A DNA stretch of 64,000 bases from Dictyostelium discoideum (taxonomy: Eukaryota): the NCBI GenBank assembly GCA_000004695.1, contig CM000153.2, positions 1 through 64,000 on the forward strand. Reading direction: 5' to 3'. Under the pieces are notes generated by a model. It searched no databases and was not told where the DNA came from. It saw only the letters and a program-made list of their open reading frames with translations. Positions 1,934 through 9,045 of this stretch are shown here, piece after piece (position 1 is the stretch's first letter; every line of letters begins with the position of its first letter). Both the position numbers and the translations under genes were made by a program.

Positions 1934-2565
1934 CAAAGGTAGAAAAAATTCAATTGGGGGCAGGGGTTACAGGGGTATGGTAAATCAAGCCATTGAACAA
2001 CTCAGGGAGGTTATTAAAATTAATTTATTAAAATTAATTTAAAAAAAAAAAATTGGAAAAAAAAAAAAATTTACAATAATAATAAATTAAATTATTATTT
2101 AAACCAAAAATTAAATTACCATTTTATTAACCAATTAAAATTGGAAAAAATTTTAAAAAAAAAAATTGGAAAAAAAAAAAAAAAAAAAAAAAAAAAAAAT
2201 TATCAATAAAAATAATAATTAAAACAAAAAAAAAATTTTAATTTAATAAACAAATAAAGGTCAGTGATTTTTTTTTTCACTGCGCTACTGTAGTGAAATT
2301 AAATAATAAAATTCACTACGTTACTGTAGTGAAATTTTATGGAAAATTCCCTACACAATAAATAATAATTTAATAATGAAACGTATTGTATACGTTCCAA
2401 ATCTCGCATTTTTCGTTGTTTTTGTAAAAACGAAATATGTCAAAAAATTTAAAAATATAGTTTTTTCACTAATACATTTTTCATTATTAAAAACATCGTG
2501 TAATTTATTATCTTTAATGTTTTATTAGAATATCTATTTAGAATTAAACAATAAACTTTTTCGAA

Positions 2566-2760
2566 TTAAAATTATCGTAAAAACTACCTTTAAAATTACC
2601 TTAAAAATTACCTTTAAAATTACCTTAAAAATGAATTTTTTAACGCGGCTTTAAATTCAATTTAAATCCAATTTAAATCAAATTTGCTTTAAATTTGCTT
2701 TAAAGGTGGTTTTTTCTTCGCTGTGTAACTGTGGTTATAATTTTATCATTTAACGCGCTA
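2566..2760 (+). repeat. copy A of an unclassified interspersed element terminus: (TACCTTTAAAATTACC)n, then GATTTAAATTGGATTTAAAT..., ending ...CTTTAAAGGTGGTTTTTTCTTCGCTGTGT
   Basis: The same ~190-bp sequence recurs inverted at 5085-5300 and direct at 5800-5935, within about 3.5 kb. It is probably a Dictyostelium transposon or retroelement end. I cannot name the family from sequence alone. Confidence 0.6.
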
Positions 2761-3256
2761 CCTAACGTATGAACAATCTAAAGAGGCCCCATTGCGCTAC
2801 AATATAAATCAGATGATGATAATCAAGGTTTCGGAACACATGCAACTGCTTCAAAAAAAATTGAATTACAATGGAGAAATGAAAACCCCATGGGGGGATG
2901 AAGCTGGGAAGTAAATTCCGGATTTTTTAGAAAAATCGCTTAGAAAGGGAGCGGCTTGTAGAAGCATTTTAAAGAGACAAGGCCTGGTTAACGCGGAGCG
3001 TTATATACATGAGCCAGTGCCTAAGTTAGTATTTTGTATTTAATATTATAAAAAAATAAATAAATAAATGAAAAAATAGGATATAATAAATAAAAAAATA
3101 AATAATTATTAAAAAAAAAATAAAAAATTTAAAAAAATAAAAAATAAAAAAAATTACTGTTGTAAATGTAAAAGTCACTCACACTAATCTTCAATCCATT
3201 GTCACCTTTGTTCAATCTTTAATCGAACTAGTCCAATCTTTAATCTAATTATTTAA

Positions 3257-3631
3257 TTAATTCCACATGAAGGATAGAAAGAGTGAAAGACTAATATCAT
3301 AATGTAACAACTGGTGGTCGGTATCATCAGTGTTAATTTTTCCTAATGATTTCTTTATTGTGTTGGTTATTGCTGCTGAAGTTATTGGTGTTGTAATGTT
3401 GGGTGATGATGGTGGTGTCGTATTGTTATTCAATTGTTGTTGAGATTGTTGATTTACTAATTGAATGTGTTGTTGAAGAAGTTGATTTTGTTTATCTATT
3501 ACCTGCTGCTGTTCCCTTATCTGACGTTGCTGTTCATTGAATGTTGATACCTGTGGTTGTTGTTGTTGTTCCTCATTATCCTGTTGTTGCAATTCATCAT
3601 TATCAATATCTTCGTTATTATTAGTTGACAT
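3257..3631 (-). CDS. hypothetical Gln-rich small protein (124 aa, MSTNNNEDIDNDELQQQ...)
   Basis: ATG-initiated ORF with an AT-rich upstream region and a coiled-coil-like Q-rich composition. It sits inside the repeat cluster with no recognisable homology, so it may not be a real gene. Confidence 0.25.
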   Translation of the reverse strand: MSTNNNEDIDNDELQQQDNEEQQQQPQVSTFNEQQRQIREQQQVIDKQNQLLQQHIQLVNQQSQQQLNNNTTPPSSPNITTPITSAAITNTIKKSLGKINTDDTDHQLLHYDISLSLFLSFMWN

Positions 3632-3740
3632 TCTCTTAAAATAAATTATTTAATAAAATTTAATTATTTATTTATTCTATTATTAAAGTGAAATGATTAA
3701 TTATTTAAGAAATAAATGTACACAAAATTAATTAATGACC

Positions 3741-3862
3741 GTAGCCCTATCGTGTTTTTATTATTTGTATATATTTATTACTGAGGTTGAATTGGAAACC
3801 TAGTTTCCTTTTTATAGTCCTTAGATTTGAGCGAACTCAAATCTATTAACTACTCCAACCTC
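3741..3862. other. GC-enriched nested-stem structured element (candidate ncRNA or foldback element)
   Basis: An outer inverted repeat GCCCTATCG...CGATAGGGT encloses a 7-bp inverted repeat GAGGTTG...CAACCTC. That in turn encloses two perfect hairpins, GGAAAC-cta-GTTTCC and TTTGAG-cgaa-CTCAAA. The GC content is well above the flanks. Confidence 0.35.
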
Positions 3863-5939: not shown

Positions 5940-7020
5940 AAGTTTTTTTTTTTTTTTTAAAATGTATTATTTAAAACAAAAATTTTATATAATATTAAAC
6001 AATATTTGTTATGACAATTGTGGAATTAAATTTAGTATGTAGTTATAGAGAAATAAAGAAAATATAAAAAAAATGAACTTCGAAAAAAAAGGAGCTTCAA
6101 AAAAAAAAAACTATATATAAAATAAATCCTTTATTTTAGCCCCAGTATTTCTGATTTTTTTTGTAAATCATTCTTTTATTTTATTTATTTTTTTTATATA
6201 TATTTTTTTTTTTAATTGTTAATAAAAAAAAAAAAAAAAAAAAAAAAATAATATGGCCAGTGAAAAATTTTTCGCGAAAAGATTGATCTTTTCAGGGAAA
6301 ACTCGATCTTTTTCAAAATAACTTTATTTATTCAAGAATTAATTCAATTATTCACTGATAGTTTCTAAATTGTGGGTATTTTGTTAAAAAAAAAAAATAA
6401 AAAAATTTGCTGGTTTGGATTAATTTTTTTTATTTTTTTATTGGACCTTTCTGTGAATAATTGAATTAATTCTGAACAAAAAAAGTTATTTTGAAAAAGT
6501 TCGAGTTATCCCGGAAAAGATAAATCTTTTGGCGAAAAATTTTTCATTTTTCATATTATTTTTTTTTTTTAATTTTTTTCATTTATTCACAATTAAAATA
6601 AAAATTATAATAAATAAATAAATAAAATAAATAGTATGATTGACAAAAAAAAATCAAAAATACCGGGGCTCAAATAAAGGATATATTTTTTATATGTAGT
6701 TTTTTTTTTTTTGAAGTTCCTTTTTTTTTTTCGAAGTTCATTTTTTTTTTATTTCCTTTATTTCTCTATAAATACAACCAAATTTAATTCTACGATAGGT
6801 CTTAACAAATATTGTTTAATATTATTTAAAATTTTTGTTTTAAATGTGTTTTATTAAAAAAAAAAAAAAAAAAACATATGAAAAGTGAAAAATTTTTCAA
6901 AAAAAAATAAACTTTTTTTGAAATAACTGAATTTATTCCGGGATAACTCGATCTTTTTCAAAATAACTTTATTTATTCAGAATTAATTCAATTATCCACT
7001 GAAAGGTCCATTTTAAAAAA
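5940..7020. mobile_element. ~1.1 kb imperfect palindromic (foldback) non-coding element built from inverted ~70-bp core repeats (GGACCTATCAGTGAATAATTGAATTAATTCTGAA...GATCGAGTTA)
   Basis: 5945-6150 is the reverse complement of 6660-6840. Examples are AACAATATTTGTTATGACAATTGTGGAATTAAATTTAGT versus ...AAATTTAATTCTACGATAGGTCTTAACAAATATTGTT, and GAACTTCGAAAAAAAAGGAGCTTCAAAAA versus TTTGAAGTTCC...TTCGAAGTTC. The core repeats at 6290-6365 and 6945-7012 are inverted relative to 6441-6512. Further core copies lie at 4985-5060 and 8812-8915. There is no ORF. Confidence 0.55.
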
Positions 7021-7639
7021 ATGCCACAATTTGAATTTGTTTTGAACATTTTTAATTTTTTTATTTTTTTATTTTTATCGGTTTTTTTTAACTTGTCACA
7101 CTTAAACAAATAAAAATCAACATATAAACCAAAAACAATACAACATCAACATATGAATCATCAATAACTAATCCACTACCATATGTAGAAAGCTTCAAAG
7201 AAGAAAAGATAAAACGGATTAACAATTTGGTTTAATGGTTTCCATAAACATCAAACAACTATAGAAATTCAAGTGGTTTTCAAGTGATAAATCCCATCCG
7301 AAATGAAAAAGCAGCATCTATTGGTAGATAGCATCCACTTATTTGGTCGATAATATTAGTTCAACATTGGATATAAAAAGAGATAAGTTTTAGTATATAG
7401 TTTTTTATTTTAAGGGGACAGGCCCCATTTTCAAAAAATTACGGGGAACCTATGACCCTGTGTACACTGAAGAAGAACAATAACAAAAAAGAAAAAGAAA
7501 TAAAAGTCGAAGAAAAAGAAGAGGAGGGAAAAGAAAAACAAGAAAAGATAAGTACTAAAAGTTTTTGCTCAATCCAAAGAATGTGTTTCCAATAGCGTAT
7601 TCGCACAGTTATCACCAACACAATCAACAGCAACCAACA

Positions 7640-7915
7640 CAACATATAGTAATAGTAATAGTAATAGTAATAGTAATAGTAATAGTAATAGTAATAGTAA
7701 TAGTAATAGTAATAGTAATAGTAATAGTAATAATAATAATAATAATAATAATAATAATAATAATAATAATAATAATAATAATAATAATAATAATAATAAT
7801 AATAATAATAATAATAATAATAATAATAATAATAATAATAATAATAATAATAATAATAATAATAATAATAATAATAATAATAATAATAATTAATAATAGT
7901 AGTAGTAGTAGTAGT
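7640..7915. repeat. compound microsatellite (AGTAAT)n, then (AAT)n, then (AGT)n
   Basis: Visible pure tandem repeats. The overlapping ORFs 7439-7921(-) and 7565-7978(+), which read as poly-Y and poly-I, are translation artefacts. Confidence 0.95.
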
Positions 7916-8699
7916 AGTCAAGATCCATCAGCAATATCAAAAAACCTTAAAAATAACAACCAACAAATTCAGTCATAAATCAATTCAACAAAACCTAATA
8001 ACATTATCAACAACGACCCAATCGATGATTACAGTTTTAATCAATGAAAGAAATGATTTTTCGAAGGATTGTATCTGCAATAGACTTTAAATCTACCAAA
8101 AGGGTTTTGATAGATAGTAGTATGCTATTTGGTTTATTAATATATTATACAATGTCGGTTATACGTTGGTCGTAGTTATATATGTAATTGTAATGGTAAA
8201 GTGGATAAGTCTCACGCTAAATCGATTAGTAGTGGTAATAGTGAATTATCAACCTCCATTGGTCCATAAACTACTCATGTTAAATCGTCAACCACTAATG
8301 CCTCAACTACTCATGCTACATCAACTACAACTGGTGCTCTGGCATTAAATCAAGTGGCAGTGATGGTAAACTTCAAATACAGGCCACACTCTTTGTCAAC
8401 TACTGGTTTTGAAATTTAAAGAAGAAACAGACTCAATCCCAATTTTCTTTTTGGGAAATTAAAAAATAAAATATTGGATCCTTTAATTTTTAAATTCCAA
8501 AATTTTCAAAATCTATATCTTAAAAAAAAAAAAAAAAAAAAAAAAAAGAAAAAAATAGATAATTTAGAAAACTAACTTTTTGTTTTTATTTGTTTTTTTT
8601 TTTTTTTTATATCTAGTAATAAGAAAATGACTCATTATTGATCCATTAAAAATGACTCTATTATTATTATTGATCCATATGTTTTTTTTTTTTTTTAAA

Positions 8700-8920
8700 T
8701 GAATGATTTAAAACAAAACTTTTAAATAGTGTTAAACAATTTTGTAGAATTAAATTTAGTAAGTAATTATGAGAAATAAAGAATAAATCAACTTGATCTT
8801 TTTTTTTTTTGAGAATTAACTCAATTATTCACCGAAAGGTCAATTCCCGAATAAATCGATCTTTTTAAAAATAATTTTTTCTTTTCAAAATTAACTCAAT
8901 TATTCATTGAAAGGTTTAAT
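8700..8920. repeat. additional fragments of the 5940-7020 element family
   Basis: 8700-8770 resembles 5945-6060 (...AAAACAAAACTTTTAAATAGTGTTAAACAATTTTGTAGAATTAAATTTAGTAAGTAATTATGAGAAATAAAG...). 8812-8915 carries two copies of the core GAATTAACTCAATTATTCA(C/T)(C/T)GAAAGGT. Confidence 0.55.
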
Positions 8921-9045
8921 GTTTAAAAGTTTTGTTTGAATCATGCATTTTATTAAAAAAAAAAACAATCAGAAATGAAAATTTTTTCAAAAATTTTTTA
9001 GAAAAAGATTCAATGAGTTATTATAATAATAAAAATACACTTTTA

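Follow-up and report, generated by a model that had tools for sequence, protein, structure and literature searches.

The first 64,000 nucleotides of Dictyostelium discoideum contig CM000153.2 (assembly GCA_000004695.1, forward strand), referred to here as the window, contain a gene-poor block at positions 2200-9000 in which one sequence occurs three times. This repeat very probably represents the ends of a 759-bp non-autonomous cut-and-paste transposon of the DDT family, which lies in a chromosome-end nest of mobile elements. An initial annotation of the window had taken the repeats for mobile-element termini and the block for a nested cluster of mobile elements, and both views were borne out. 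Its assignment of the termini to the retroelements TRE5, TRE3 or DGLT-A was not. In their place stands a DNA transposon with terminal inverted repeats (TIRs), 2-bp target-site duplications (TSDs), no poly(A) or long terminal repeat (LTR) structure, and termini shared with elements that encode a probable DDE transposase.

The three copies were found nowhere else in the 64 kb by BLASTN. Positions 2589-2730 aligned to 5198-5058 with 92.3% identity over 143 nt (E 3e-53), and 2589-2726 aligned to 5808-5928 with 74.3% identity (E 3e-21); the part common to all three is ~135-160 bp long, shorter than the ~190 bp first proposed. The 21-mer GGTGGTTTTTTCTTCGCTGTG was located at 2705-2725 and 5907-5927 on the plus strand without mismatches and at 5063-5083 on the minus strand with three mismatches, at an expectation of 0.01 from shuffles. 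The two direct copies do end at the same boundary, as had been suggested for all three, and the inverted copy has the variant terminus GGTGCATTTTTCTTTGCTGTG. The start of the inverted copy is 5063; the value of 5085 given earlier leaves out the terminus. Copies 2 (from 5063, inverted) and 3 (to 5927, direct) point outward and are the two ends of one element. The element, its contents and its fragment are as follows.

5063-5927, plus strand: complete DDT-type non-autonomous transposon of 759 bp (consensus 1-613 at 5063-5675, consensus 627-759 at 5795-5927).
5063-5083 and 5907-5927: its termini, with the TSD TG at 5061-5062 and 5928-5929.
5676-5794: assembly gap, made up of 100 N (5676-5775) and 19 unmatched bases (5776-5794), in place of consensus 614-626 (13 bp of 12-bp repeats).
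5498-5568, plus strand: internal tRNA-like segment, whose A box is TGGTGTAATGG (5505-5515) and whose B box is GGATCGAATCC (5548-5558).
5449-5462: TRE5-A target site AAAAAAATGGGGAT, duplicated (14 bp) around a 2367-bp TRE5-A in assembly GCA_054883475.1; the TRE5-A is absent from the window.
2566-2725, plus strand: DDT-type solo terminal fragment, with terminus GGTGGTTTTTTCTTCGCTGTG at 2705-2725, 12-bp repeats running inward from ~2575, and 92.8% identity to consensus 1-136.

No partner end for the 2566-2725 fragment was found in the window. Target-site duplications, which had been proposed as a check at the copy boundaries, are present at the complete element; their length of 2 bp is not of the retroelement type.

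The same locus was retrieved from a gap-free D. discoideum assembly (GCA_054883475.1, CM142510.1, 5,539,705-5,560,079 of 5,576,411 bp; locus L001) via the exact protein of the open reading frame (ORF) at 3257-3631. L1r, which is L001 reverse-complemented, runs colinear to the window: window 101-5462 corresponds to L1r 6852-12195 (99.0% identity), window 5446-5675 to L1r 14563-14792, and window 5795-11369 to L1r 14806-20375 (99.9%). The window copy is 99.5% identical to the consensus at positions 1-613 and 100% identical at positions 627-759. One of the two assembly gaps that had been placed in the block is the N gap at 5676-5775; the other is at 1-100. The initial annotation had named beforehand, as counting against it, the lack of a tRNA in the sequence that fills the gap, and the resolved gap consists of ~13 bp of 12-bp repeats without a tRNA. 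The reference assembly probably breaks at the element because its hairpin-forming repeats fold strongly (-141 kcal/mol as single-stranded DNA, z -9.7).

Further loci rich in transposable elements (TEs) were retrieved through homologues of the ORF neighbouring the window's left gap. Ten complete copies of the element were found in L001, L003 and L004, which belong to two chromosome records (CM142510.1, CM142509.1) and an unplaced scaffold (L003). The copies are 732-761 bp long and 95.6-100% identical, and a 325-bp derivative with an internal deletion is 89.5% identical. All ten start with CACAGCAAAGAAAAATGCACC and end with GGTGGTTTTTTCTTCGCTGTG (CACAGC...GCTGTG), and similarity halts exactly there. 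For example, the copies at L1r 3263-4010 and 5762-6509 share 97.5% identity across exactly 748 bp, with similarity ending abruptly on both sides. Perfect 2-bp TSDs flank nine of the ten copies (GA, AC, AC, TA, TA, TA, TT, AA, TG); the probability of at least nine in ten is 6e-9 at a chance dinucleotide match of 0.096. One copy is located inside a larger element, where the filled site reads AATTCTTC-748 bp-TCCCAAT and the empty paralogue in L002 reads AATTCTTCCCAAT; therefore, TC was duplicated on insertion.

The left arm of the element aligns to the reverse complement of the right arm over ~180 nt. The first 27 nt are near-identical and the TIRs as a whole are imperfect. Both arms carry TTTAAA-centred motifs (~33) spaced at 11-12 bp, with an autocorrelation peak at 12 nt of 0.63-0.68. 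The centre (positions 390-590, ~200 bp) has no 12-nt periodicity and contains the tRNA-like segment. The element combines sharp shared inverted termini, a TSD of fixed length, an empty site and an autonomous partner with the same termini, as TIR transposons do. By comparison with published descriptions, it is probably DDT-S or else a derivative, perhaps by deletion, of DDT-B.

Candidate autonomous partners were recognised through a 692-aa ORF just past the window's left gap in L1r. Its homologues are only multicopy D. discoideum hypothetical proteins with no Pfam domain, in two subfamilies of ~85% and ~50% identity to it. The autonomous elements are 5.0-5.2 kb long (L002 7218-12251; L003 10844-16790, which is 5187 bp long when its nested 758-bp copy is left out) and encode a protein of 785-842 aa and a second ORF. 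Their boundary sequences are CACAGCAA[A/T]GAAAAATGC... and ...CATTGCTGTG. The L003 copy has the TSD AA/AA, and its first 26 nt are those of the small element's left end. The second subfamily (L005, L006) has CACAGGGGC termini, a TA TSD and its own 12-bp subterminal repeats. At L006 3430-11250, an element of this subfamily (~50% protein identity) has 12-bp subterminal repeats of the AAGTATACTTAT type, and L005 13789-15834 holds a 2046-bp DDT-type derivative with the TSD AT/AT.

The DNA transposons of D. discoideum (Tdd, DDT, thug) have been described in reviews as having transposases without similarity to known ones (PMC5633606). A profile of 15 DDT proteins compared with 1.84 billion representatives also matched weakly related proteins from beyond Dictyostelium (E 5e-8 to 1e-3), most of them on metagenome or Logan contigs. 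The family PF02992 (Transposase_21; tnp2, CACTA type) was above its cut-off in four of the ten relatives scanned. Profile-profile alignment with hhalign put the link to Transposase_21 at a probability of 99.8% (E 2.7e-28, 484 columns). The N-terminal halves, which are not what retrieved the distant relatives, reached 95.7% by themselves (E 9.5e-9); both aspartates are aligned, and the pairs FTD/NTDG and TMDIPEF/VADAPAR and CxxC motifs are matched. These alignments give good support to the DDT protein being a putative distant DDE transposase of the CACTA/Mirage/Chapaev (Transposase_21-like) type. The CAC termini, the 2-bp TSD and the subterminal repeats fit the same group, in which Mirage and Chapaev have been merged into EnSpm (PMC4455052). 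This assignment, with the 2-bp TSD and the terminal structure, may be the one new result of the analysis, and it may already be recorded in Repbase.

In the proposed mechanism, the 5.0-5.2 kb elements that have the same termini would supply their 785-842 aa protein in trans to move the 759-bp element. This transposase would attach to the termini and to the subterminal repeats and excise the element, and reinsertion at a 2-bp staggered cut would generate the 2-bp duplications that are observed. In the window, one copy has landed within the left arm of B-I, a long-inverted-repeat element described below, and of a second copy just a terminal fragment survives. The tRNA-like centre would be a putative binding site for TFIIIC/TFIIIB, and TRE5-A would integrate ~49 bp upstream of it.

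The tRNA-like stretch had been noticed between the copies from the start, and the Rfam tRNA model places it, at full length, at 5498-5568. By score and fold it is not a functional tRNA gene. ARAGORN at default settings reports no tRNA gene in the 64 kb and reports 5498-5568 only at a relaxed 80% threshold. Rfam gives no tRNA in the 64 kb at the gathering threshold, and a search of 2000-9200 with E up to 10 returned neither a tRNA nor another family in the block. The A box matches its consensus fully and the B box at 10 of 11 positions, the A box starts 43 nt before the B box, and the pair is the only one in the window. The idea of a chromosomal tRNA target that had been destroyed or left unassembled has to be given up: the stretch is internal to each transposon copy, which carries it as cargo, and it is not what remains of a target.

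The initial annotation was right to see the tRNA-like stretch as relevant to tRNA-targeting retroelements. In the other assembly, a 2367-bp TRE5-A is inserted at window position 5462, with its 5' end facing the tRNA-like start from 49 bp upstream. The insert contains two A-module-like repeats, an A-tail and a 444-aa ORF1 that is multicopy in AX4. Of the published ORF1 primers (PMC4559204), Rep-109 matches it exactly and Rep-108 with two extra bases. A TRE5-A DNA query had no match anywhere in the window, an absence that reflects either strain polymorphism of an active retrotransposon or collapse of the reference assembly. Published insertion distances of TRE5-A are 37-90 bp, centred at ~50 bp (PMC5006619; PMC9012585), and in DDT-B an A/B-box motif has been shown to receive TRE5-A 46 bp upstream, in natural and experimental insertions (PMC9012585). 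By analogy with these cases, the tRNA-like piece most likely acts as a TFIIIC/TFIIIB binding site, and TRE5-A would have inserted ~49 bp upstream because the centre binds these factors.

Is the tRNA-like centre instead a functionless relic or a chance resemblance, with the adjoining TRE5-A a coincidence? The acceptor stem is unpaired, shuffled sequences fold as well as the RNA does (z -0.03), the Rfam tRNA model scores 14.8 bits where the gathering threshold is 29 (E 1.8, with 246 nt searched), and the copies are too alike to reveal selection. These points are countered by the A box, B box and spacing given above, by a TRE5-A at the canonical distance (49 bp versus 37-90 bp, PMC5006619) with a duplication of canonical length, and by independent published TRE5-A insertions upstream of the DDT-B A/B box (PMC9012585). 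A relic or chance resemblance is unlikely in this light, and it is the alternative that survives best.

The reading first proposed was that the repeats are termini of tRNA-gene-targeting TRE5, TRE3 or DGLT-A elements clustered at a chromosomal tRNA gene, which would since have decayed or would lie in the gap. The tRNA-like stretch between two of the copies and the TRE5-A found 49 bp upstream of it would suit this view. It is nonetheless very improbable, given the inverted termini common to DDE-transposase elements, the 2-bp TSDs, the want of poly(A) or LTR structure, the occurrence of the tRNA-like stretch in every copy, across two chromosome records and an unplaced scaffold, the 13 bp of repeats in the gap and the negative tRNA searches. 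The repeat copies do not have the 3' oligo(A), variable 5' truncation, 10-16 bp TSDs or ORF1/ORF2 sequence of TRE5 and TRE3. A solo LTR of DGLT-A or H3R would, by description, be a ~265-bp TG...CA unit with a 4-6 bp TSD located 13-33 bp upstream of a tRNA gene; CACAGC...GCTGTG, a 2-bp TSD and no tRNA gene were found. TRE5-A itself has no DNA match in the window, and ORFs of at least 80 aa from the TE-rich loci (including reverse-transcriptase and integrase ORFs), compared with window 1-12000 by tBLASTN, gave only spurious matches across element termini in 2200-9000.

Subtelomeric segmental duplication or palindrome formation, as the source of the copies in place of transposition, scarcely fares better. 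The locus is near a chromosome end, and 5943-6871 (L1r 14954-15882) is a large inverted duplication of ~82% identity. Against this, similarity between the copies ends exactly at the termini, other chromosome records also carry copies, whose flanks are unrelated and which have 2-bp TSDs, and a paralogous empty site exists. Least probable of all is a tRNA-derived short interspersed element (SINE), a retroposon transcribed by RNA polymerase III (Pol III): the unit is short, its copies are highly similar and it has an internal A/B box, but this box is mid-unit (positions 443-496) and not at the 5' end, the inverted arms are long, there is no 3' A-tail, the TSDs are fixed at 2 bp, and the termini are shared with transposase-bearing elements.

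Several points weigh against the preferred reading of the repeats as the ends of a non-autonomous DDT-family transposon with a captured tRNA-like centre. Neither an excision footprint nor a strain polymorphism of the 759-bp element was seen. The arms of the small element and of the autonomous elements are only ~72-75% identical, and its true parent may be another DDT subfamily. The putative family name comes from the shared termini and the description in PMC9012585, DDT-A, DDT-B and DDT-S having been compared by description only. The A/B box is absent from the three autonomous copies scanned, in contrast to its presence in the DDT-B consensus (PMC9012585). Pfam gave no transposase match to the DDT protein, 15 family members or the small ORFs, and the link to a superfamily is a profile-profile comparison only. 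The tRNA score and fold cited above count on the same side.

The remaining elements of the block are listed below. They include two more repeat families, B and C, which the initial annotation had not told apart.

4983-5062, plus strand: left arm of family-B element B-I, starting GGACCTATCAGTG... and split by the DDT-type element.
5928-6365, plus strand: centre and right arm of B-I, ending CACTGATAGTTTC.
6443-7009, no strand assigned: complete family-B element B-II (567 bp), with GGACC...GGTCC arms of ~140-165 bp and a centre inverted relative to B-I.
8676-8917, plus strand: internally deleted family-B remnant, with the start of the centre and two tandem arm ends.
3167-3302, minus strand: Skipper-1 solo LTR (family C), part 1, with the left TSD GTAAA at 3162-3166.
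4451-4708, minus strand: Skipper-1 solo LTR, part 2, ending ...TCTCTAACA, with the right TSD GTAAA at 4709-4713.
3303-4450, no strand assigned: single-copy 1148-bp insertion that splits the LTR, with ends TGTAACAA...TTGTTACA and the TSD CATAA at 3298-3302 and 4451-4455.
7379-7467, minus strand: 90-bp block with ~82% identity to a block that three autonomous DDT copies conserve in their 5' region, upstream of the transposase ORF.

Family B consists of long-inverted-repeat elements whose arms of ~140-165 bp (GGACCTTTCAGTGAATAATTGAATTAATTCTG... / ...GGTCC) surround a centre of 250-290 bp. B-I spans 4983-6365 in total, with the DDT-type element nested in its left arm between the TG duplications. 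The stretch that contains B-II (6436-7017) is a near-perfect hairpin of -126 kcal/mol (z -13.6). Elsewhere, family B was found only at L004 18041-18148, at the locus edge on another chromosome record, where it is interrupted by a Skipper LTR. Family B was also considered as a poly(A)-tailed retroposon; this was rejected, as its T/A runs are internal and flanked by inverted arms. Around the 90-bp block, 7100-8420 resembles a decayed coding region with many stops.

The description of the block as gene-poor with strong, long hairpins was confirmed by the folds of the 759-bp element and of 6436-7017. The claim that it is packed with hairpins is true of long imperfect inverted repeats, which make up its hairpin character; short perfect hairpins are not enriched in the block, where a strict scan passed 4710-4768 alone (one of three passes in 64 kb). 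This hairpin has a perfect 23-bp stem and a 13-nt loop and is located just beyond the LTR end, with the stem beginning inside the right GTAAA duplication.

Family C is a ~390-bp TGT...ACA unit, the ends of which are sharp in six copies. At L004 10705-17656, it flanks a 6952-bp element with ORFs for gag, protease-reverse transcriptase-RNase H and integrase-chromodomain; the Chromo domain match is weak (E 3e-4). Skipper-1 has a length of 6998 bp and an LTR of 390 bp (PMC5006619), and family C is assigned to the Skipper-1 LTR on described lengths and organisation, not on a consensus alignment. An assignment of family C to thug-S, considered for its small RNA, was rejected in favour of the Skipper-1 LTR. 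That small RNA, miRNA-like_D4 (PMC4894637), is located at 3222-3243 (plus strand) within LTR part 1, and its 22-mer is unchanged in two of five other aligned LTR copies (L1r and L004). It has been mapped to four places in the genome, of which two are near telomeres (PMC4894637).

The insertion at 3303-4450 had no match among the other fetched loci. Its ends and 5-bp TSD are an integrase-type signature, that of an LTR or a Tdd/Ginger2-like element. It contains most of a 124-aa Q-rich ORF at 3257-3631 (minus strand), which the other assembly annotates as a gene. At 3738-3878 (minus strand), a closed two-hairpin fold (-44.3 kcal/mol, z -6.2) has no Rfam match and could be a structured RNA or a processing hairpin.

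The block is a distal, TE-rich region near a chromosome end. The window starts ~23 kb from the end of CM142510.1 (5.58 Mb), and the block is ~25-34 kb from that end. Left of the window's first gap, the nest goes on in L1r with a further Skipper LTR, an autonomous DDT copy truncated at its 5' end, and two more 748-bp DDT-type copies, one of which lies within an integrase-like gene. The window begins within this integrase-like gene, a pseudogene at window 101-1340 (L001 13286-15266) that the 748-bp copy splits in the other assembly; its Integrase_H2C2 zinc-finger and rve_3 parts are upstream there. A KSP-type 12-nt coding repeat with in-frame stops occupies 983-1226 of the pseudogene. This 12-bp periodic array was considered as kin of the element's 12-mers and rejected, being a coding repeat of the integrase-linked pseudogene.

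The window has a G+C content of ~13-37% throughout. Far beyond the block, the DdR15 small nucleolar RNA is found at 59280-59392 (135.9 bits, all bases as in the Rfam consensus); it was the sole Rfam family above the gathering threshold in the window. A tandem duplication of ~160 bp at 39694-40084 (78-82% identity) is probably a coding repeat. A ~65-bp repeat that is not of low complexity (GGATATAAAAATNTCAGTATTAAAGTGGTGAAAAnTAATTTTGAGCGGC...) stands in tandem at 48957-49021 and 49029-49094, with a third, inverted copy at 9488-9561, at the 5' edge of the minus-strand ORF 9046-9495, which belongs to the ABC-transporter gene. None of these copies (48957-49094, 9488-9561) matches Rfam.

The element families were already catalogued in 2001, and the link between the A/B box and TRE5-A was published in 2022. 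What the locus adds is, in part, an annotation map: a complete DDT-type element and a fragment of another, two and a half family-B copies, a split Skipper-1 solo LTR and a trivial gap. The DDT family gains a defined structure of CACAG termini, a 2-bp duplication and 12-bp subterminal repeats, with CACTA/Mirage/Chapaev as the likely superfamily. The locus is a second natural example of TRE5-A targeting a DDT-borne A/B box. Two linked readings follow this line further, namely that DDT elements are deeply diverged members of the CACTA/Mirage/Chapaev group and that the 759-bp derivative spreads a captured Pol III promoter in the form of TRE5-A landing pads. Jointly they are a tentative proposal, somewhat more apt to fail than to hold, and the landing-pad part draws on one natural insertion here and on the DDT-B case (PMC9012585). 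If true, a DNA transposon would reshape the integration map of a retrotransposon, each new copy being a fresh TRE5-A landing pad. This bears on how "safe-site" retrotransposons locate sites besides genuine tRNA genes.

How does the element compare with known systems? DDT-A, DDT-B and DDT-S were reportedly described by Glöckner et al. in 2001 as putative DNA transposons of D. discoideum. The elements described here resemble this family in their host species, in ~5 kb autonomous elements with an orphan transposase, in a TE cluster at a chromosome end, and in an A/B-box motif ~430-470 bp from one end with TRE5-A at 46-50 bp. DDT-B is a putative transposon with a consensus of 5471 bp (PMC9012585), from which the autonomous copies retrieved here differ in their length of 5.0-5.2 kb and in being without the A/B box. 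The resemblance to Skipper-1 comprises the ~390-bp TGT...ACA unit of family C, the 6952-bp element of L004 and a 5-bp TSD in the window; unlike Skipper-1, the window holds a solo LTR only, split by the 1148-bp insertion. TRE5-A (DRE) occurs at the same locus in the other assembly, with a 14-bp TSD and its 5' end ~49 bp upstream of the A/B-box unit, but the window lacks it and the repeated termini bear no relation to it.

Elements of the CACTA, Mirage and Chapaev type typically have CAC... termini, TSDs of 2-4 bp and subterminal repeats; the TSD is 2 bp in Mirage and 3 bp in CACTA. The group to which they belong (CACTA/En-Spm, Mirage, Chapaev; CMC; PF02992) shares with DDT the CAC termini, subterminal motifs in both orientations and a short TSD (2 bp here), and the putative transposases share the DDE layout, a CxxC after the second aspartate and an H..H...WG...SAE..E block (99.8% by hhalign). 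DDT differs in a protein too diverged for a direct Pfam match, in termini of CACAG and not CACTA, and in transposases that reviews have called unrelated to known ones (PMC5633606). MITEs (miniature inverted-repeat transposable elements) and other non-autonomous TIR elements are alike in being short and non-coding, with ends shared with an autonomous partner, high identity and fixed TSDs. At 759 bp, the element exceeds classic MITEs, and its tRNA-derived centre bears no relation to the partner. Dada targets tRNA or snRNA genes, where its TSDs are 6-7 bp long. It is likewise a DNA transposon tied to tRNA-type sequence (PMC3706591); unlike in Dada, the tRNA-like piece of the 759-bp element is cargo carried within it, and its targets are unrelated dinucleotides.

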